Shown: in pieces, positions 1-16,842 of the stretch | How positions within the stretch are numbered: the stretch's first letter is position 1 | Layout: the number at the start of each line of letters is the position of its first letter | Sequence record: SRR22947725_9170 | DNA: 32,932 bases | Reading direction: 5' to 3' (one strand) | Made by a program: the position numbers and the translations under genes | The notes under the pieces: model-generated | What the model was told of the DNA's origin: nothing | What the model saw: only the letters and a program-made list of their open reading frames with translations | Databases searched by the model: none

Positions 1-652
1 TGCTGTCGGTGGCGGTCCGTGCAAACGCTTCGAAGGCTTCGAAGATTGCGTCCAAGGTTCCATAAAAGTCGAGATGATCCGGTGCGATGTTCGTAATCAA
101 TACGTGAGCGGGTTCATAGCCCACGAAGGATCTATCGGATTCGTCCGCTTCGATCACGAAGAGGTCATCCGATCCTGCCCGCGAGGAAACACCCCACTGG
201 CTGATCACTCCCCCATTGACACAGCCCGCGTCGATACCGACGGCTTCCAGCGCGGTGGCGAGCATCGCGGTGGTCGTCGTTTTGCCGTGAGATCCCGCAA
301 CGGCAAGAGGCGTTTTGCCCTGCAAAAGCCACCGCAGGGCTTCCGAGCGGTGGATAATCGTGAGGCCCCGATCGAGCGCTTCGAGATACTCCGGATTAGT
401 CTCGCGAACAGCGCTAGAGAAAACGACGGTGTCTACCCCGGCAAGGTGGGCGGCATCGTGACCAAGGAACACCTGGATACCTGAATGCCGCAACGACTCG
501 ACAACCTCGGAGTCAAACCGGTCGGAACCGGTCACTCGGTGTCCGCGCTCGGCAAAAACTCGGGCAATCCCGCTCATTCCAGAGCCTCCAACCCCGATAA
601 AGTGAATCGCACCCATCGCCTCCGGGAGAGCTCTGCCCAATTCAGGTTTCAT
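1..652 (-). CDS. murC: UDP-N-acetylmuramate--amino acid ligase MurC (partial; 3' end runs off the window)
   Basis: Hand translation from ATG 652 gives MKPELGRALPEAMGAIHFIGVGGSGMSGIAR...VAGSHGKTTTTAM...EADESD...ITNIAPDHLD. ATGA overlap with the murG stop; canonical dcw position. Not in the ORF track because it is truncated by the window. Confidence 0.96.
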   Translation of the reverse strand, partial: MKPELGRALPEAMGAIHFIGVGGSGMSGIARVFAERGHRVTGSDRFDSEVVESLRHSGIQVFLGHDAAHLAGVDTVVFSSAVRETNPEYLEALDRGLTIIHRSEALRWLLQGKTPLAVAGSHGKTTTTAMLATALEAVGIDAGCVNGGVISQWGVSSRAGSDDLFVIEADESDRSFVGYEPAHVLITNIAPDHLDFYGTLDAIFEAFEAFARTATDS

Positions 653-1737
653 TGCGACTCTTTCTGTGACAGCGTCATCACGGCTTCTGCCATCTGTTCG
701 GCGGCATCGTTCTTTCCTAACCCTGCCGCGGCCTCTTTCATTCTCTGCAGAGCAGCTTCCTCCGCCAAGATGGGCATAACTGTGGCCAGCACACCTTCGT
801 GGGTGAATTCATGGTCCGGCACAATCATCGCTGCGCCGCAGGCGACACTCTCCGAGGCGTTTCTTGCTTGTTCGCCATTACCCACCGGGTAGGGAACAAA
901 GATCGCTGGAAGGTGAAGCACCTGAATTTCAGAGACTGTCGCCGCGCCCGCGCGGGAAATCACTGCGGTCGCACTGGCAAGGGCCAGGTCCATGCGGTCG
1001 CAATAGTTCATTCCCCGATACCCCCGGGGCATATCGGCCGGGACGGTGTTGGCACCACCAACAATGTGGAGCACTTGCCACCCCGCCTGGGTGAGCACAC
1101 TAGCCAGAGCAGCAATTGTTTCGTTGATGCGCGTGGCGCCCTGTGACCCACCGGTGACCAGCAACGTCTTGGTCTGCGGCTTCAATCCGAAATGGGTGCG
1201 CGCCGTAGCGGGGCTCAGCGGCGAGTCCGGGTGAGTGATAGTTCTCTTCATCGGCATTCCGATGACCCTAGAGCTCGGAAATTTGGGGGTGGGAAAAGCA
1301 GTCAATACCTGGCGAGTGAAGCGGGCTCCTAGAAGGTTGGCAAAACCCGGCACAGCATTAGCTTCGTGGATCACCAGCGGGGTCTTGCGAAGCCACGCCG
1401 CGACATACACCGGGGCGCTGGCGTAGCCACCAAACCCCGCGACCACATCGGCCTTGTGGCGGGACAACATGCGAAGTGCCTGCAGGGTGGCGAACACAAA
1501 TCGTGGGAAAAAAGCAACAGCCAGGAGACTGAGTTTCCGCGGGAAAGGTAACCGCGCGAGAGTGTTAAGGCTTAGTCCGGCATCGGGAACGAGCCTCGAT
1601 TCCAGGCCTTCACGTGTGCCAACAACGACGATGTCCTCGGCCATCACGCCGTGGCTTCGTTGGAGCTCTTCCGCCACAGCCAAAAGAGGGTTGACGTGAC
1701 CGGCGGTGCCTCCGCCGGCAAGAATTACTCGGGTCAT
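649..1737 (-). CDS. murG: Undecaprenyldiphospho-muramoylpentapeptide beta-N-acetylglucosaminyltransferase MurG
   Basis: MTRVILAGGGTAGHVNP, GFGGYAS, HEAN, GGSQGA, SRAGAATVSE, GNGEQ motifs. ATG 1737 overlaps the ftsW stop (ATGA); the ORF-track extension to 2199 lies inside ftsW. Confidence 0.96.
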   Translation of the reverse strand: MTRVILAGGGTAGHVNPLLAVAEELQRSHGVMAEDIVVVGTREGLESRLVPDAGLSLNTLARLPFPRKLSLLAVAFFPRFVFATLQALRMLSRHKADVVAGFGGYASAPVYVAAWLRKTPLVIHEANAVPGFANLLGARFTRQVLTAFPTPKFPSSRVIGMPMKRTITHPDSPLSPATARTHFGLKPQTKTLLVTGGSQGATRINETIAALASVLTQAGWQVLHIVGGANTVPADMPRGYRGMNYCDRMDLALASATAVISRAGAATVSEIQVLHLPAIFVPYPVGNGEQARNASESVACGAAMIVPDHEFTHEGVLATVMPILAEEAALQRMKEAAAGLGKNDAAEQMAEAVMTLSQKESQ

Positions 1738-2966
1738 CGACGCCTTCCCCGCGCGGCAGAATAGTGCTCCGTCACCGAGATCGCGCCCGCGCGGTTGAGT
1801 GCCATAACTATCCCCACCGCCGCCAGCGAGGACAGGAGTGCCGATCCACCCACCGACATGAATGGCAGCGGAATCCCGAGTACCGGGAGCAGCTCCAGGA
1901 CCACAGCAATGTTGATGAGCGCTTGCCCAATCAACCAGACCATCACGCCCGCTGTCACCAAACGAGCGAAGGGATCTGGATTTTTTCTCACCAGGTGCGC
2001 CATCGTAATGGCGAGCACAACAAAGCACACAATGACAAGCCCCGCACCGAGAAGGCCCAGCTCTTCGCCCACGATGGCGAAGATGAAGTCGGTTTCTGCC
2101 TCGGGAAGCCAGGACCATTTTGCCCGGGAGTTGCCCAGTCCCACGCCGAACACTCCTCCAGAGCCCAACGCGAAGGTGGAATGAACCGTTTGCCAGCACG
2201 TGGTGAGGTACTCATCCTCTGTGCATCCAGAAAACCAGGTAGTGATTCGTCGAACCCGCGAGGGGGCAAAAAGTGCGGCCATCGCTCCCAAGGCGGCCAG
2301 GACGACGAGGATGCTGGCAAGGTGTCGGAGCCGAACCCCTGCGAGGAACAGCACACCAATAACCACCACAACCATCACGCCCACGGTTCCCAAGTCCTCG
2401 CCGAACATGACCATGCCGATAGACGCGACCACTCCAATCCCCAAAGGCGTCGCCAGGGTTCGAAGTTCTCCGATGGCCTCGAGTCGAGAAGACAGAATTG
2501 TTGCCATCCAGAGGATCAAAGTCACTTTGAGAAGCTCAGAAGGCTGCGCGGAAAAATTCCCCACGGCGATCCAGTTTCGGTTTCCCCCCGAAGTAACCCC
2601 TAGGGGTGTGAAGACAAGACTCTGTAAGAACAAGGCTGCGAGCAACCCCGCGGGGGCTGCTCGCAGGATCGCAATCGGTTGGACTCTGGCCAGTAACAAC
2701 ATGACCGGAATCCCCATTAACACCCACATGGCCTGCCGCAGAAAGACAGCAAAAAAGTTTCCATCATTACCCAGGGCCGAATCAACGAAAGAAGATGACA
2801 AGACCATCACGAGCCCGAAAATCACCAGGAAAAACACTATCGCCACCATCACCACGTAGTGGGGGGACTCCTGGGAAAACAGACGCTTGACGCTCACCAC
2901 GACGCGCGCGTCCGGAGCGGCTCGATTTTTGGCTTCAGGGTTTCTCACGGGTGCGCCACGAGCCAT
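1734..2966 (-). CDS. ftsW: SEDS-family peptidoglycan glycosyltransferase FtsW
   Basis: Multi-TM protein with GGNRNWI, QPSELLK, DLGT, GVGLGNS, LPEAETDFIFAIVGEELG, PLPFMSVGGS. ATG 2966 is preceded by AAGGGGTGG; alternative start 3005. Confidence 0.95.
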   Translation of the reverse strand: MARGAPVRNPEAKNRAAPDARVVVSVKRLFSQESPHYVVMVAIVFFLVIFGLVMVLSSSFVDSALGNDGNFFAVFLRQAMWVLMGIPVMLLLARVQPIAILRAAPAGLLAALFLQSLVFTPLGVTSGGNRNWIAVGNFSAQPSELLKVTLILWMATILSSRLEAIGELRTLATPLGIGVVASIGMVMFGEDLGTVGVMVVVVIGVLFLAGVRLRHLASILVVLAALGAMAALFAPSRVRRITTWFSGCTEDEYLTTCWQTVHSTFALGSGGVFGVGLGNSRAKWSWLPEAETDFIFAIVGEELGLLGAGLVIVCFVVLAITMAHLVRKNPDPFARLVTAGVMVWLIGQALINIAVVLELLPVLGIPLPFMSVGGSALLSSLAAVGIVMALNRAGAISVTEHYSAARGRRR

Positions 2967-3079
2967 CTCACCACCCCTTAGGTTGCAAATGTCAAGCGCG
3001 GGCATGGGTACAGGAACACGCGCCTTTCTAGTGTGCGCCCGTGGGTGAAAACCTCGGCGATGCCACGCCGGATGCGTTT

Positions 3080-4066
3080 TTAGGGCAGAGTCAGCACGCC
3101 AGCGATGACCGCCGGAGAAACATCAAAAGCCCGTGCGACAGCAATGGCACCCACGATCACCGGCAAATCCTCGGGGATGGTCCAGCCCGCTTCGCTCAAT
3201 TCCTCCAGGGTGGACACTTCGAGGGCGTGATTGGCTCTGTCATCGAGGAAGGCCCGGTCGACCAGGATGCCCTCCACCAGGCCCAAGTCGCTGCGGTCGG
3301 GGGAATCAAATCCCACCCCGATAGCGCGTGCTCCATCAGACACGTCGGCGTCTTCCACCAGTGACATGCTGGGTCCAAGACTTTTGCGATACACACAGGC
3401 GAGTTGGGTGCCATCGAAGAGGGCACCGTTTGTCAGGGTGGAGGTCTCCTCCACACAGACCGCAACATAGGGAGAACGGTGTCCCTCTCCCCGTGCCAGG
3501 AGCTGCGCCTGGTTGTCCGAGGCAAGAACTATCAACGCTTGATAGTCGTGCGGGTCGCGCAACGCATCGAGTAAGACGTCGGAATGGTGTCCGACCACCA
3601 ACGCGGGAACATCACCGGCATTCAGAAGACGTGCTGCGAGCTCTGCCAGACGCCTGCCATAGGTCTCACCGGCAACGAGCACCCAGGGCGAGAGGTGCTC
3701 TCTCTTATCCCGCACCCGCCAGGCAGCGTCGAGATCAGACCACACCAGAACTCCCTGGTTCTCAGCCGCCGTCACGACCGGGCTGTCTGCAGGAACCCCT
3801 GGGGACAGCACCAACGCCTCGGGAGAAAAATCCTTCAGCGCTGCGGACAGTCCTCGATCCCCCGCAACCACAGGAACAACCCCCAACACCTCGAGAATGC
3901 GAAGAGTATCGGGCCCTGCCTCATTGGCTAGGGCAAGTACATCGCAGCCGAGCTCAACAAACGTGTCCACCAGCGCAAACCCCGTAGCACCGAGCCCCAG
4001 CACCGCGACGCGATGGCCTGCCCAGTCGCTCGACCAACTTCTTAGCTGATCAATAGAACGAGTCAA
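3080..4066 (-). CDS. murD: Degenerate, C-terminally truncated MurD homologue (domains 1-2 only, catalytic motifs lost)
   Basis: Lies between mraY and ftsW. MurD-like N-terminus (SW..DW.G.RVAVLGLG.TG, VLSPG, AWRVRDK, LDALRDP, GILVDRAFLDDR). The P-loop position reads AGETYGRRL, and GNIG/ELSS/DHLD/HRxE/DSKATN are absent. TTG 4066 overlaps the mraY stop; alternative GTG 4078. Confidence 0.85.
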   Translation of the reverse strand: MTRSIDQLRSWSSDWAGHRVAVLGLGATGFALVDTFVELGCDVLALANEAGPDTLRILEVLGVVPVVAGDRGLSAALKDFSPEALVLSPGVPADSPVVTAAENQGVLVWSDLDAAWRVRDKREHLSPWVLVAGETYGRRLAELAARLLNAGDVPALVVGHHSDVLLDALRDPHDYQALIVLASDNQAQLLARGEGHRSPYVAVCVEETSTLTNGALFDGTQLACVYRKSLGPSMSLVEDADVSDGARAIGVGFDSPDRSDLGLVEGILVDRAFLDDRANHALEVSTLEELSEAGWTIPEDLPVIVGAIAVARAFDVSPAVIAGVLTLP

Positions 4067-5160
4067 CGGCTGAGCCACTCCAGGTAAAAGAGTCCCGCCC
4101 CCGCAGCCGCGCACAGACCCGCAATCAACCAGAAACGCACAACAATCGTGACCTCCGCCCAGCCTTTAATTTCGTAGTGGTGGTGAAGCGGCGAGGAATA
4201 AAAAATTCGTTTACCCTTGGTGGCTTTGAAATACAGCCGCTGCAGGATTACCGAACCCGTGAGAATCACAAACAAACCTCCCACCAGCGGGAGGAGCCCT
4301 TCTGTCCGGGAGAACAGTGCCAGCCCGGCCACGCCCCCACCTAAACCCAGTGAGCCGGTGTCTCCCATGAAAATCCTGGCGGGCGACGTGTTCCACCATA
4401 AGAACCCGATCAGGCTGGCACTGGCAATAGCGGCGACGGTGGTGAGCTCGAGAGAATCTCTGACTTCGTAGCACTTAAGGAAATTGTCTTCATCCGGGAA
4501 TACCCGGAAGCATGACTGATTGAACTGCCAGAAAGTAATCATGACATAGGCGACAAAGACCAACACCGCTGAACCGCTGGCGAGACCGTCCAAACCATCC
4601 GTCAGGTTTACGGCGTTAGAGGTCCCCACGATGATGAGTGTCGCCCACACCGCAAAACCGACCAAGACGCCAACCTGTCCCCACTGCGAGAAATCAATCA
4701 CGTCAGCATTTCGCACCAAGGACATGCCGGGGGCTGCCGGGGTTTGGCCATCGGAATCAGGAAAAGACACGGCCAACACGGCAAAGGTAACCGACACCAG
4801 AATCTGCCCGATGACTTTGCTTCGCGGGCTGAGGCCCAACGAGCGTTGCTGGCGAATCTTGGAGTAGTCATCCAAAAACCCCACGAACCCCAGGGCCACC
4901 ATCAAACCGATCACCAAAAGGGCGGACTGGCTGGGTGGGACACCTTCGATCAGGTGGGCAGTGAAGTACCCAAAAACAATGGCGAGCAAGATGACGATCC
5001 CACCCATTGTGGGCGTACCACGCTTGACGTAGTGGGTTTTGGGGCCATCTTGACGAATAAATTGTCCCCAGCCGATGGAGGCAAAAAGCCTGATGAAGAG
5101 TGGGGTGAGGAACAAAGAAAACCCCAGCGAGAGGGCGCTTCCCAGCAGCAGAATTCTCAA
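4063..5160 (-). CDS. mraY: Phospho-N-acetylmuramoyl-pentapeptide transferase MraY
   Basis: KRGTPTMGG, GFLDD, NAVNLTDGLDGL, FMGDTGSL and PLHHH motifs; multi-TM. Confidence 0.97.
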   Translation of the reverse strand: MRILLLGSALSLGFSLFLTPLFIRLFASIGWGQFIRQDGPKTHYVKRGTPTMGGIVILLAIVFGYFTAHLIEGVPPSQSALLVIGLMVALGFVGFLDDYSKIRQQRSLGLSPRSKVIGQILVSVTFAVLAVSFPDSDGQTPAAPGMSLVRNADVIDFSQWGQVGVLVGFAVWATLIIVGTSNAVNLTDGLDGLASGSAVLVFVAYVMITFWQFNQSCFRVFPDEDNFLKCYEVRDSLELTTVAAIASASLIGFLWWNTSPARIFMGDTGSLGLGGGVAGLALFSRTEGLLPLVGGLFVILTGSVILQRLYFKATKGKRIFYSSPLHHHYEIKGWAEVTIVVRFWLIAGLCAAAGAGLFYLEWLSR

Positions 5161-5609
5161 GCGAGGAGCTCACTCAGTCTTAACACCAGCGCACCCATAT
5201 CTTTTGGAACACCGCCCAAAACGACAACAACATCGCCGGGGCCAATGTCTTTCGACACCTCATCGTAGGCGCTAGCGACATCCTCGACGTGTTGTGACTC
5301 CCCGTCCCACGAACCTTCCCGACCCACCGAAGCAAAAATGGCCCTCGCCTCGGGCCCAATAGCAATGCACTTGGCCACATTAACTCGAACAATAAAGGCT
5401 CCGAAAGCCTCGAGGTCGTCGTAATCCGATTCTCCCGTCCATTCGATTGCCCCGGTGAGAACTATTTGGCGTTGTTCCGGAGTCACGGCGCCTCGCACGG
5501 CTTTGAGAAGATCGACTGCCGCCCGAGCCCCCACCACGCTGGTGCCGTCAATGATGGCGCCGCCTCCCCGAATCGGGTGAGAGGGGACACCAAGGTCCGC
5601 ATCCATCAC
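5157..5609 (-). CDS. murF: Stand-alone degenerate MurF C-terminal domain (~150 aa)
   Basis: Occupies the murF slot between murE and mraY with 4-nt overlaps at both ends (GTG 5609 on the murE stop; stop on the mraY TTG). Resembles MurF domain 3 (IVRVNV, REGSWDGES, PGDVVVV) but has no N-terminal or ATP-binding domain. Confidence 0.75.
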   Translation of the reverse strand: MMDADLGVPSHPIRGGGAIIDGTSVVGARAAVDLLKAVRGAVTPEQRQIVLTGAIEWTGESDYDDLEAFGAFIVRVNVAKCIAIGPEARAIFASVGREGSWDGESQHVEDVASAYDEVSKDIGPGDVVVVLGGVPKDMGALVLRLSELLA

Positions 5610-7162
5610 GGCCCCCTCTCTTCTGCGACCTCTGGCCACCCAGCATCTGCCAGCGCATTCTGAGCTTCTCGTTTGGCAGAATACGGCACCTTCTCTCCGC
5701 CGACATCGCGATAGGACTGCGAGCCTGGACCGCTCCAGAGCACGCTATCGCCCTCCCCCACCAGTGTGAGAGCAAACCTTATGGCCGTGGTGGGGTCAGG
5801 GACGTCATGCACATCGCGGTGTCGAACGGAGCGCGCACCTTCCAACAAACCCGCTCTAATCAGGCCAGGGTCCTCTTTTCGGGGATCGTCATCGGTCACA
5901 ATCACCACTTCTGCTCCGCGCGCAGCAACCGCGCCCATGACGGGTCGCTTCGTAGCATCGCGGTTGCCGGAGGTGCCGCACACCATCACAATTTTTCCTG
6001 TTGTGAGAGCCCTGATCGCAGCCAGCGTGTGTTCGTAAGCGTCGGCGCTGCGCCCCGCGTCCAAGAACACTGACGGACCTGAGGTTCCCGAAACTTTCTC
6101 TACTCTGCCAGGGATGGAGACTGGTATCCCTGTGGTTCCAGGACCCATGGCAGCGGAAATATCCGCCAGAGCGATACCGGATTCCTTCAGCATCACCACA
6201 GCGAGAGAGGCGTTGGCCACCATGTGCTCGCCAATAATCGGAGCTCTCAGCTCGAGCGATTCGCCCGCGGGCCCCCTCAGGTGCCACCTGGAGGTCTCCG
6301 AGGCCTCGTCGAGGACCTCATAGCTCCACTCACTGGGCCCTCGGGTGTGACCAGCGACGGTGGTGAAGGGGATCGTGACCTGCTGGGCGAGAGCGCGACC
6401 CCATTCACCATCAACACAGATCACACCGCGACGGGCCATGGCCGGCTGGAAAAGGGTTGCCTTGGCCTGGAGGTAGGGCTCCATCCCCCCAAAATCTTCA
6501 AAGTGGTCGTGGCTTAGATTGGTGAACCCCACCACAGCGCTCATCACACCCTGAAGCCTGTTCTTGACCAACGCTTGAGCGCTGACCTCAATTGCTACCC
6601 CACCCACACCTTTTTCACGACTCAGCGCAAGCATGGCGTGAATGTCGGGGGCTTCGGGGGTGGTCAGGCTCGAGGGGTACGCCACACCATCCACTCGGCG
6701 CTCTGCTGTCGTCGAAAGAGCCGTTCTCCGACCGATTCCCCTCAAGAGGGCTTCGAGGAGGAAAGCCGTTGAGGTTTTCCCATTCGTTCCCGTGACAGAA
6801 AAAACTGGCGGGTGATTCTCCTGCGCTGTGCCATACACGAGTGCGGACAGCGCTCCCAGAAGCTGTCGGGGATTTTCTGCAACAACGGCAGGGGTGGCTG
6901 TTGCGCCAAGGGCTGAGCATCCCGCGACATCGGTGAAGACCGCTACCGCGCCCTGAGCGAGAGCCTCATCCACCATCTCACTGCCGTGGCGATTGACACC
7001 TTGAAGAGCTACAAAGACATCTCCGGGCATCACCGCCTGGGTATGAAGGGCAACGCCGGTCACCGAAACGTCATCACCCTCGTGGGCGAGACCGAGGCCT
7101 CGAGCAATCTCTCCGAGCGTAACCGCGGGTGCACTCGTTGGGCGAAGTGGCCTGCTGGACAT
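5606..7162 (-). CDS. murE: MurE-family UDP-MurNAc-dipeptide--amino acid ligase (divergent substrate pocket)
   Basis: PGDVFVALQG, VTGTNGKTST, LTTPEA, EVSAQAL, FTNLSHDH, PGRVE, RDATKRPVMG, TDDDPR. Directly downstream of ftsI. Confidence 0.93.
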   Translation of the reverse strand: MSSRPLRPTSAPAVTLGEIARGLGLAHEGDDVSVTGVALHTQAVMPGDVFVALQGVNRHGSEMVDEALAQGAVAVFTDVAGCSALGATATPAVVAENPRQLLGALSALVYGTAQENHPPVFSVTGTNGKTSTAFLLEALLRGIGRRTALSTTAERRVDGVAYPSSLTTPEAPDIHAMLALSREKGVGGVAIEVSAQALVKNRLQGVMSAVVGFTNLSHDHFEDFGGMEPYLQAKATLFQPAMARRGVICVDGEWGRALAQQVTIPFTTVAGHTRGPSEWSYEVLDEASETSRWHLRGPAGESLELRAPIIGEHMVANASLAVVMLKESGIALADISAAMGPGTTGIPVSIPGRVEKVSGTSGPSVFLDAGRSADAYEHTLAAIRALTTGKIVMVCGTSGNRDATKRPVMGAVAARGAEVVIVTDDDPRKEDPGLIRAGLLEGARSVRHRDVHDVPDPTTAIRFALTLVGEGDSVLWSGPGSQSYRDVGGEKVPYSAKREAQNALADAGWPEVAEERGP

Positions 7163-14865: not shown

Positions 14866-16842
14866 ATGGACGCCCCCACCGCTGACCCTCTTGTGGGGTT
14901 GCTGGTTGATGGTCGCTATCTCATTCAAAGCCGGGTCGCACGTGGGGGTATGGCCACCGTCTATCAGGCACTTGACCAGCGCTTAGAGAGACCTGTGGCC
15001 ATCAAGGTCATGCACCCTCACCTCGCCGAGGATGCTGAGTTCACCAGGCGCTTCATCCAAGAAGCGAGGCAAGCGGCTCGCCTTGCGCACCCGAACATCG
15101 TCAATGTCTTCGATCAGGGCCAAGAAGGCGCCCTCACCTACATCGTGATGGAATATTTGCCGGGCATCACGCTGCGAGAGTTACTGCAGGATTTTGGAGC
15201 CCTCACCGTGGGGCAAACCCTTGACATTGTGACCGCGGTGCTCAATGGTCTCGACGCAGCCCACACGGCGGGCATCGTGCATCGGGACTTGAAGCCCGAA
15301 AACGTTTTGCTTGCGGATGACGGTCGCATCAAAATAGCTGATTTTGGCCTTGCCAGAGCTTCCACCCACAACACCGCAACTTCTCAAGCTCTTTTGGGGA
15401 CCATCGCCTACCTCTCCCCCGAGCTGATTTCTCGGGGCGAAGCAGACCTGCGAAGTGACATCTATGCCCTCGGCATCATGATGTTTGAAATGTTGACCGG
15501 TGAACAGCCCTACCAGGGCGATCAAGCAGTCACCATTGCCTACCAACACGCGAATGACATTGTCCCCGCCCCCAGCACGAAAAACCCTGACATCCCCGCT
15601 GCCTTTGACGAACTCGTTGACTGGTGCACGCGTCGCTCGCCGGACGAGAGACCTCCCCACGCTCGCGCCGTGTTGGAACACGTCCGTTCCTTAGAGTCCC
15701 TCGTCGGCGCACCCCCCACCCAACCGCTTCGAACCCTCGATCAAACGATCGCCATGACGCAGCGAATGTCCCCCCTAGACCTGGAGGAAACCCAGGTTCT
15801 GAACCCCAAGGCCGGTGTGTTTGATGGTTTAGAACCCACCTCCTCCATCGGCACTATTTCCCAAGACACCGGGGAGATCCCGCCTCAAGAACCCGTTGCG
15901 CGCCGTCGCAGAAGTGGCGGGTCACGGTGGGCATGGATCAGCGCCTTCATCCTCGTGATTGTCATTGGTGGAGGAGGAGGAGCCGCGTTGTGGTGGGTGA
16001 ATGGGCCGGGGGCGATGACCACCGTCCCGGACGTTTCCGGAATCAGCGTCAGCACCGCCACCACAACTCTGGTGGCAGCGGAGTTAGTGGTGTCAGCAAC
16101 ACCGCTGGAAGAATTTGACCTTGTCCTGTCCGCCGGCACCGTGAAGGGAACGTCACCCGGCTCTGGCGAAAACGTGGATAAGGGCACTGAGGTGACACTG
16201 ATTGTGTCGCTCGGCCCCAACCCCGTTAGCGTCCCCTCGTTGGCAGGGGAAACCCTCGATAGCGCCCGCGCCCTGCTGGAGGAACTCAACCTCATACTGG
16301 GTGTGACGCGGGAAGAATTTAGTGCCAGCGCGGCGAAGGGAACACTGTTGCGCCTCACCGATACCTCCGGGCTTGCCCTCGCCCCCGGGAGCGAAATACT
16401 CGCTGGGTCCACGCTCGACGCCGTCCTCTCGGCAGGTGTCATTCCCGATGTCACCGGGCTCACCGTGGATGAAGCCCAAGCGATGCTCAACCAGGTCGGA
16501 CTCAGCGGAGTCGTCGGTGGCGATGGCGCCTACTCCGATTCGATTGCCGAGGGCTCCGTCGTCGAGATTTTGGCCGCCACTACCCAAACCTTCGCCCCCG
16601 GTGACACCCTCACCCTCGTTGTCTCACGGGGGCCCGAACTCGTAATGGTGCCCGACGTGGTGGGCGACACCATTGCCGACGCGAAGGCAAAACTGGAATC
16701 ACTCGGTTTCAGCGTGGAAGTCCGATCGGAATATCCGGAATCAGATTGGGACCGCTCATTCGCCCGGGTGACCAGCATCGACCCCAGTGCCAGTCAGGAA
16801 GTGGTGAAAGGTACCACCATCATTCTGCGCAGCTTCATTTAG
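14866..16842 (+). CDS. pknL: PASTA-domain Ser/Thr protein kinase (PknL/PknB type)
   Basis: ARGGMATVY, VAIKVM, HRDLKPEN, DFGLA, GTIAYLSPE, one TM, about four PASTA repeats (VPDVSG, VPSLAG, IPDVTG, VPDVVG). Synteny with Rv2175c and aroG matches pknL. Confidence 0.9.
   Translation: MDAPTADPLVGLLVDGRYLIQSRVARGGMATVYQALDQRLERPVAIKVMHPHLAEDAEFTRRFIQEARQAARLAHPNIVNVFDQGQEGALTYIVMEYLPGITLRELLQDFGALTVGQTLDIVTAVLNGLDAAHTAGIVHRDLKPENVLLADDGRIKIADFGLARASTHNTATSQALLGTIAYLSPELISRGEADLRSDIYALGIMMFEMLTGEQPYQGDQAVTIAYQHANDIVPAPSTKNPDIPAAFDELVDWCTRRSPDERPPHARAVLEHVRSLESLVGAPPTQPLRTLDQTIAMTQRMSPLDLEETQVLNPKAGVFDGLEPTSSIGTISQDTGEIPPQEPVARRRRSGGSRWAWISAFILVIVIGGGGGAALWWVNGPGAMTTVPDVSGISVSTATTTLVAAELVVSATPLEEFDLVLSAGTVKGTSPGSGENVDKGTEVTLIVSLGPNPVSVPSLAGETLDSARALLEELNLILGVTREEFSASAAKGTLLRLTDTSGLALAPGSEILAGSTLDAVLSAGVIPDVTGLTVDEAQAMLNQVGLSGVVGGDGAYSDSIAEGSVVEILAATTQTFAPGDTLTLVVSRGPELVMVPDVVGDTIADAKAKLESLGFSVEVRSEYPESDWDRSFARVTSIDPSASQEVVKGTTIILRSFI

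Follow-up and report, generated by a model that had tools for sequence, protein, structure and literature searches.

A murD relic stripped of its catalytic motifs is maintained by purifying selection between mraY and ftsW in Pontimonas

We analysed a stretch of DNA of 32,932 nucleotides (nt; sequence record SRR22947725_9170, hereafter the window) that carries a division and cell wall (dcw) gene cluster on its minus strand. Between mraY and ftsW, the position of canonical murD, this cluster holds an open reading frame (ORF) of 328 codons plus stop (3080..4066, minus strand). We find that the encoded protein, here called the murD relic, comprises domains 1 and 2 of MurD only, that the motifs of the ligase chemistry have been lost from it, and that it is maintained by purifying selection and is not a decaying pseudogene. 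In the genus Pontimonas (Microbacteriaceae), where the relic is widespread, the incorporation of D-glutamate (D-Glu) appears to have been taken over by a murL-murD2 gene pair. We hold the combination of lost chemistry, predicted retention of the fold, purifying selection and displacement by murL-murD2 with high confidence. The account as a whole, in which a dead and displaced MurD would have been kept for a non-enzymatic role, is in our judgement the best explanation and a reasonably probable one.

In a joint alignment with MurDs of the family Microbacteriaceae all catalytic motifs were found altered (all positions on the minus strand). The former P-loop TGTNGKTTT reads AGETYGRRL (3647-3673), such that the Walker-A pattern GxxGK[ST] is absent from the central domain. 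The former GNIG reads GHHS (3581..3592), and ELSS.QL has become LASDNQA with loss of the Glu (3506..3526). The segment LN.ADDH..WHGS..Y..AK is reduced to VEETSTLTNGAL with a 15-column gap (3419..3454), and APH...N reads IPEDLPV (3158..3178). A preliminary description of the window had already given the first four of these readings, and each of them was correct. The ELSS Glu, the DH His and the carbamylated Lys, which we take from the E. coli MurD structures to be the Mg and acyl-phosphate residues, are all substituted or deleted. The roles of the remaining motifs in adenosine triphosphate (ATP), Mg and substrate chemistry are likewise presumed from the structural literature on the E. coli enzyme. 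In a set of 35 truncated sequences, neither the P-loop Lys nor the Thr/Ser is retained in any (0%).

The loss is selective and goes beyond chance. Conserved columns were defined as those at ≥90% in 30 canonical Microbacteriaceae MurDs, from which the MurL-positive genome G049 was excluded, and this gave 136 columns. The relic keeps 5 of the 35 columns that lie in the five motifs and 74 of the 101 others (Fisher p = 9.8e-10). A selective loss of catalytic motifs had been proposed in the preliminary description, and the evenly spread divergence that it had named as contrary evidence is not seen in this comparison.

Residue numbers given here follow P0001, the longest frame, which runs from GTG 4114 (344 codons). 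The N-terminal Rossmann-like domain (residues 17-125, 3740..4066, minus strand), assigned by Pfam MurD-like_N and the alignment, retains LRSW..DW, GLGATGF..DT..ELG and SPG. The central domain (residues 126-344, 3083..3739, minus strand), assigned by alignment and structure match, has lost all ATP, Mg and catalytic motifs. Other ancestral segments remain recognizable, namely LtSW..DW at the N-terminus, AWR.RDK, LDA.R.P and the block V.dAdV.eGaRAIG...PG.SD.G.V.gI..DRAFL.dR...ALE.sT..El. Judged by invariant columns among 74 relic sequences, the best-conserved block spans residues 253-306 (3197..3358, minus strand) and reads VEDADV.DGARAIG....SP..SDLGLVEGI.VDRAFL.DR...ALE.ST.EEL. It is common to canonical family MurDs and all relics examined, and the retained segments are also present in the canonical MurDs of MurL-negative genomes.

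As the preliminary description had noted, the protein ends with ..VLTLP, just ahead of the family motifs F..HR.E and DDSKATN. The relic thus stops at the boundary between domains 2 and 3, and the C-terminal D-Glu-binding domain with HR.E and DSKATN is missing. Since ftsW begins 75 nt past the relic stop codon (3080-3082), the stretch that encoded domain 3 has been lost and not merely closed off.

Profile searches reflect this reduction. The only Pfam match is MurD-like_N (32.5 bits), and the MurD equivalog TIGR01087 is matched over profile positions 1-157 only, with 45.3 bits compared to a curated cut-off of 211.95. Relative to murD of 100 other Microbacteriaceae genomes, which occupies the same dcw position where examined and encodes about 500-530 amino acids in the copies extracted, the relic is 32-45% identical over residues ~5-342. 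It thus resembles canonical MurD (TIGR01087; solved for E. coli, e.g. 1UAG/2UAG) in its position between mraY and ftsW, its identity of about 40% over residues 5-342 and the predicted fold of domains 1 and 2. It differs from it by the absence of the P-loop, GNIG, the ELSS Glu, DH...K, H..N and the C-terminal domain. From its sequence, the relic is a MurD by descent and predicted fold that lacks every enzymatic feature of the ligase, such that it should not be annotated as a ligase.

An AlphaFold model built on an alignment of 74 relic sequences reached a mean predicted local distance difference test score (pLDDT) of 92 and a predicted template modelling score (pTM) of 0.88. A Foldseek search with this model returned solved MurDs as best matches (3lk7, E 3e-14). 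Overall, superpositions on solved MurDs gave Z 27-30 and a root-mean-square deviation (rmsd) of 2.2-2.6 Å over 274-288 residues. Model residues 24-344 align to residues 1-297 of E. coli MurD (Z 27-28, rmsd ~2.5 Å, 274-279 residues aligned) and residues 28-344 to residues 4-308 of 3lk7 (Z 30.3). By the domain limits of the E. coli enzyme, the aligned region is the entire N-terminal and central domains and nothing else. The relic is therefore predicted to fold still as domains 1 and 2 of MurD. A search of solved structures with a sequence profile of the relic reached only the N-terminal domain plus the first part of the central domain.

Of 38 Pontimonas species genomes, 36 gave a match to the relic ORF, at identities from 98% down to 36%; the two that gave none have completeness values of 63% and 73%. 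The nearest genome, G001, shares the 344-codon frame; its copy is 98% identical to that of the window, from which it differs by 21 synonymous and 7 nonsynonymous changes. In 28 of the 30 genus loci fetched the frame is uninterrupted and has the same end point. The ratio of nonsynonymous to synonymous substitution rates (dN/dS) was estimated by the Nei-Gojobori method for 15 close genus pairs, which are not independent because taxa recur among them; the medians were 0.097 for the relic, 0.018 for MraY, 0.037 for FtsW and 0.054 for a MurF relic described below. Within the murD relic the ratio was 0.168 for the N-terminal and 0.068 for the central domain. Pooled values were 0.115 at 39 former motif positions and 0.098 elsewhere, i.e. 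the former active-site positions are themselves now constrained within the genus. As a single example, the relics of G120 and G112 differ by 20 synonymous and 8 nonsynonymous changes. The earlier proposal of selection on a non-enzymatic role is supported by the low dN/dS of about 0.10 and the open frames as far as selection is concerned; the non-enzymatic nature of the role is our deduction.

Strong constraint on the central domain, together with the invariant charged residues R133, D136, K137, R186, R263, D286, R287, R293, E299 and R328, might suggest that the relic is still an enzyme, with residual or new chemistry independent of the ATP site of Mur ligases. These charged residues are, however, inherited from canonical MurDs. 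The former active site carries no conserved new motif, the P-loop stretch being different in each lineage, and Pfam and NCBIfam match no other family. We therefore regard an enzymatic relic as very improbable.

The likely reason why the ligase chemistry could be lost is found elsewhere in the genome of G001. There, a murL homologue adjoins a MurD-type ligase gene (L001:60-4176). The MurL protein has 467 amino acids and matches NF041275 with E 2.8e-98 and 329 bits, where the cut-off of 700 is tuned to Xanthomonadales. Its stop codon overlaps the start of a complete ligase of 470 amino acids (TIGR01087 278 bits) with P-loop and C-terminal domain intact. The same pair of murL and MurD-type ligase genes was found in G030, G061 and G049. 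Compared to a solved Pseudomonas MurD, the G001 ligase has Glu in place of the EDH Asp (PEH) and Arg in place of the GGDGKG Lys (GGFDRG), positions which would correspond to 182 and 348 of the E. coli enzyme. In MurD2, Glu replaces E. coli Asp182 and Arg replaces Lys348, and these two residues switch the specificity between L-Glu and D-Glu (PMC8788868). Organisms that use MurD2/MurL lack D-Glu-forming genes (PMC8788868).

Across the genus, MurL was found in 35 of 38 genomes and in all 15 high-quality ones, such that relic and MurL co-occur. In the family as a whole it is rare (8 of 101 sampled genomes). A glutamate racemase (TIGR00067) was not found in any of these eight MurL-positive genomes, for which a D-amino-acid aminotransferase was not searched, compared to 90 of the 93 MurL-negative genomes in which the racemase was present. 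The three MurL-negative genomes without a TIGR00067 match are G013, G019 and G062, of which one has a completeness of 80% and another a genome size of 0.9 Mb. The murL-murD2 pair lies directly upstream of rph-rdgB in all four MurL-positive genomes checked. In all three canonical genomes checked murI has this position (G001 and loci L147-L152 for both groups together), which indicates that the cassette replaced murI in place.

With a MurL-MurD2 route and no racemase, D-Glu ligase activity becomes dispensable, and this accounts for the "reverse" conservation noted in the preliminary description, i.e. the loss of active-site residues with retention of other blocks. In the mechanism we propose, the relic is what remains of the ancestral dcw-cluster murD of a marine Pontimonas. 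MurD2 would add L-Glu and MurL would epimerise it on the nucleotide precursor, the pair having replaced murI at the murI locus. Once free D-Glu was gone, canonical MurD would have been left without substrate and its chemistry would have become dispensable. The relic itself would not be part of the MurD2/MurL pathway; the pathway would explain why the relic is tolerated.

One could alternatively imagine that the relic serves the incoming MurD2 or MurL as an accessory subunit or chaperone. It is present in 7 of 8 MurL-positive and in none of 30 aligned MurL-negative copies of the family (the other MurL-negative copies were judged solely by an open-frame length of ≥489 amino acids), in line with its co-occurrence with MurL across the genus. 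Such co-occurrence is expected in any case, since a dead MurD is tolerable only once a bypass exists. In addition, the conserved surfaces are of ancestral origin and also occur in MurDs of MurL-negative genomes, and the relic is missing from seven MurL-positive families. In vitro, recombinant MurD2 and MurL work alone (PMC8788868). An accessory role of this kind appears distinctly improbable.

The relic state recurs within the family. In 7 of 8 MurL-positive family genomes the dcw murD stops at the same boundary to within a few residues, with the P-loop stretch scrambled differently in each relic lineage. Motif columns are lost preferentially in each further copy compared: 15/35 motif versus 97/101 other columns are kept in G061, 6/35 versus 85/101 in G098, 7/35 versus 83/101 in G029, 10/35 versus 79/101 in G036, 9/35 versus 68/101 in G092 and 7/35 versus 67/101 in G030. 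The remaining MurL-positive genome, G049 (locus L058), in which murI was not found, has a full-length dcw MurD with P-loop that keeps 20/35 motif columns. Its GNIG reads GAEG, HR.E reads HSSA and DSKATN reads DSRATT. By its sequence this protein looks like an intermediate stage of decay. On a tree of the flanking MraY and FtsW (47 loci) the relic state required 6 changes (bootstrap range 5-6), with a single origin in no bootstrap tree, and an approximately unbiased (AU) test rejected one relic clade (p 2e-58). The number of origins rests on this flanking-gene tree and not on the MurD gene tree; in a quick MurD tree, 2 changes are required by the starred branches.

Relic-like proteins also occur in databases. 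A profile search was run against 1.84 billion cluster representatives, and of its best 150 matches 48 were relic-like in length and end point. Of these, 46 lacked the Walker-A pattern, which was present in 31 of 36 full-length representatives. In a database clustered at 90% identity, 113 of the 120 best relic matches were 194-347 amino acids long, and many of these short matches are labelled MurD ligase by the Joint Genome Institute (JGI).

Beyond Microbacteriaceae, 25 genomes out of 401 from the class were MurL-positive, with G001 counted among the 25. The further MurL-positive families carry the codes f5, f16, f24, f26, f27, f37, f38, f41 and f48. We inspected the dcw region in ten MurL-positive genomes of eight such families. 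Both genomes examined of family f41 (G313 and G414; loci L129 and L130) contain a two-domain relic with the same end boundary; one of these copies is fairly fresh, with GNVG and SSFQL still present. One of the ten loci contained only murC. Three MurL-positive genomes retain a high-scoring canonical MurD as well.

Several observations weigh against the proposed account. In seven of the inspected genomes, one per family, mraY adjoins ftsW with gaps of at most ~450 nt and no murD-like match between them, and one of these families, f16, has a canonical MurD with the same conserved blocks. The retained role would therefore be lineage-specific and not universal. The f41 relic pair is weakly constrained (dN/dS ~0.45). 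The MurD gene tree did not reject a single relic clade (AU p 0.50), for which long branches may be the cause, and the relic allele may have spread by recombination. The presence of murL-murD2 and the absence of murI were seen in G001 and other relatives and are deduced for the window's own genome. Within the genus, the copy of G120 (locus L082) has an in-frame TAG at aligned codon 247, and in G108, which is 59% complete, the relic is split between two frames. The pairs used for dN/dS, as said, are not independent. Finally, evidence of expression is weak: RNA-library contigs from two studies (X1 and X2) cover 3188-3511 and 3713-4350, the latter spanning the mraY/relic junction, and such contigs may derive from DNA carried over. 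Thus, of the contrary evidence named beforehand, stops in sister genomes are limited to one TAG and one split frame among 30 loci; an absence of expression is countered in part by contigs over portions of the relic, which are weak evidence. Both G120 and G108 are metagenome-assembled genomes, in which sequencing error and real loss look alike.

The interrupted copies, the relaxed f41 pair, the loss of the catalytic motifs and domain 3 and the complete deletion of the gene in other families could together indicate that the relic has no protein function, being either a slowly decaying pseudogene or a mere provider of mraY-ftsW spacing or translational coupling. Against this stands a dN/dS of ~0.1 in the relic frame over 328 codons and a frame kept in 28 of 30 loci despite identities down to 36%. 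Moreover, the structure model is confident, the same domain boundary is seen in at least five lineages, and coupling would take only tens of bases. We consider a relic without protein function hardly credible.

How the gene is started bears on its possible role. The true start is almost certainly TTG 4066 and not GTG 4114, because it overlaps the mraY stop codon, is preceded by GGAG 10-13 nt upstream and corresponds to the first residue of a database homologue (P0002, 80% identical to the relic). The gene thus extends from TTG 4066 to the stop at 3080-3082, which agrees with the limits given in the preliminary description. In the genus copy of G129 a stop is found at aligned codon 16, just upstream of the TTG position. 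The 16 codons between the two candidate starts (4067..4114, minus strand), which contain the 3' end of mraY in another frame, show 3 synonymous and 49 nonsynonymous changes (pooled over the 15 genus pairs) and are therefore non-coding in the relic frame. The start TTG (4066-4064) and the mraY stop TGA (4065-4063) share the sequence TTGA (4063..4066, minus strand), by its layout an arrangement for translational coupling.

We tentatively propose, as the likeliest role, that the relic is a putative non-catalytic, protein-binding adaptor, a role in which we place somewhat less confidence than in the account as a whole. It would have been kept for a non-catalytic job of the actinobacterial MurD that needs domains 1 and 2 only. 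Made co-translationally with MraY, it may act at the membrane-proximal lipid-I/divisome machinery, with MraY, FtsW, MurG, other division proteins and PknA/B-type kinases as candidate partners. A protein-binding role near the membrane steps is suggested by the coupling of the relic start to the mraY stop, by the domain abutting mraY that the MurF relic keeps, and by reported Mur interactions. According to the accessible part of one report, the Mur synthetases of M. tuberculosis interact with FtsW, FtsZ, FtsQ, Wag31, SepF and PknA/B and not with each other (PMC3605390), and the portion available of another describes binding of Mur enzymes to MraY, MurG and MreB (PMC4929429). As the retained surfaces are ancestral and shared with MurL-negative MurDs, the retained job would predate the displacement. 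A PASTA-domain Ser/Thr kinase of the PknB type is encoded in the window at 14866-16842 (plus strand), about 11 kb away from the relic. Such kinases are reported to interact with Mur ligases of actinobacteria (PMC3605390).

A binding role could alternatively be directed at a small ligand. In this case domain 1 would bind uridine diphosphate (UDP) or the UDP-N-acetylmuramic acid (UDP-MurNAc)-aminoacyl precursor, and the relic would serve as a sensor, buffer or hand-over module. The GLGATG and SPG loops, by which E. coli MurD contacts UDP, remain largely intact in the relics (0.71-0.97 and 0.60-0.91 per column). UDP-sugar substrates are reported to inhibit Mur synthetases (PMC3605390), which points to control at the precursor level. 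The two loops, however, double as structural elements of the fold and lie in the less constrained half of the protein (0.168 vs 0.068). The GNIG Asn and the DH His, with which E. coli MurD holds its substrate by the MurNAc-Ala end, are lost from the central domain. Taken together, ligand binding seems unlikely.

Extending the adaptor proposal, actinobacterial MurD could moonlight in general, with domains 1 and 2 forming a structural piece of an MraY/FtsW-centred lipid-I/divisome assembly; this we put forward as a speculation that is more doubtful than the adaptor role itself. If true, the relics would represent at least five natural separation-of-function events, in which catalysis and domain 3 are shed, and the scaffold half stays, whenever murL-murD2 replaces murI. 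The C-domain relic of MurF would then be its counterpart on the opposite side of MraY, and both relics would mark docking surfaces of the long-postulated complex of Mur ligases and MraY.

This MurF relic of 160 amino acids is encoded directly upstream of mraY (5157..5639, minus strand), between murE and mraY, and consists only of the C-terminal Mur-ligase domain (Pfam Mur_ligase_C 30.6 bits). Its dN/dS of 0.054 indicates tighter constraint than for the murD relic, and from its domain content it appears to follow the same pattern. A canonical MurF was not found in G001. A gene for a MurF-like ligase of 519 amino acids adjoins ddl in this genome (L009:982-2541 and 2563-3702). In this ligase the N-terminal domain is predicted to be replaced by a hydrophobic, apparently membrane-spanning stretch. 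The membrane-type ligase occurs in 8 of 101 Microbacteriaceae genomes; the murE-mraY interval is ~430-950 nt in all of the other seven genomes that have it, compared to ~1400-1450 nt in five without it.

The displacing system itself is known. Like MurD2/MurL of Xanthomonas oryzae (XOO_1320/XOO_1319), G001 has an adjacent gene pair, the Glu and Arg residues and no murI found. The Xanthomonas genes have been tested for complementation of an E. coli strain auxotrophic for D-Glu (PMC8788868). A 2021 review assigns this pathway to Xanthomonadales, some Alphaproteobacteria and Micromonospora-type actinobacteria, and mentions neither Microbacteriaceae nor any retained dead MurD (PMC8788868). Our literature searches found no earlier account of a Mur-ligase pseudoenzyme or of a truncated MurD relic. 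The 2018 genome paper on Pontimonas salivibrio calls the peptidoglycan genes "mostly typical", and neither "MurD" nor "glutamate racemase" occurs in its main text.

Pseudoenzymes are catalytically dead homologues that are kept for binding or scaffolding, for example pseudokinases. Judged from its motifs and substitution pattern, the relic fits this definition: it is an enzyme homologue with lost catalytic residues, and its fold and non-catalytic surfaces are under purifying selection. In contrast to usual pseudoenzymes, the relic is not a dead duplicate but the original orthologue, which still occupies its old place in the operon, and it has repeatedly shed the same domain. A second point of comparison is MurT of the MurT/GatD lipid II amidotransferase, in which the ATP site, the central domain and the C-terminal domain are present and the N-terminal domain is missing. 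Like the relic, MurT is a protein derived from a Mur ligase with a reduced domain set, and it works in a complex; unlike MurT, the relic keeps the N-terminal and central domains and has a dead ATP site.

Mur ligases have been treated purely as enzymes and antibiotic targets, and a conserved and recurrent dead MurD argues for a separate structural role. For the debated multi-enzyme complex behind cytoplasmic peptidoglycan synthesis, the relic would be a natural point of entry, its conserved surfaces indicating where contacts may be sought. For annotation, a MurD-ligase label on such proteins would mislead metabolic reconstruction. The actual route to D-Glu, by MurD2/MurL without MurI, has gone unremarked for Pontimonas, and our survey widens the range of this pathway to Microbacteriaceae and several further actinobacterial families.

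The dcw cluster of the window consists, on the minus strand, of rsmH, a small ORF, ftsI, murE, the 160-amino-acid ORF of the MurF relic, mraY, the murD relic, ftsW, murG and murC. Directly upstream of the murD relic lies an intact mraY (4063..5160, minus strand; TIGR00445 281 bits, dN/dS 0.018), and downstream of it ftsW (1734..3005, minus strand), identified by its ORF and by Pfam and NCBIfam matches. Scans of 2900-4200 returned no promoter-like site and one terminator-like site on the plus strand, which is within chance expectation. The longest murG frame (649-2199, minus strand; 516 amino acids) overlaps ftsW by ~460 nt, and the MurG domains begin only at its residue 154, such that the real murG start probably lies well downstream of the start of the longest frame.

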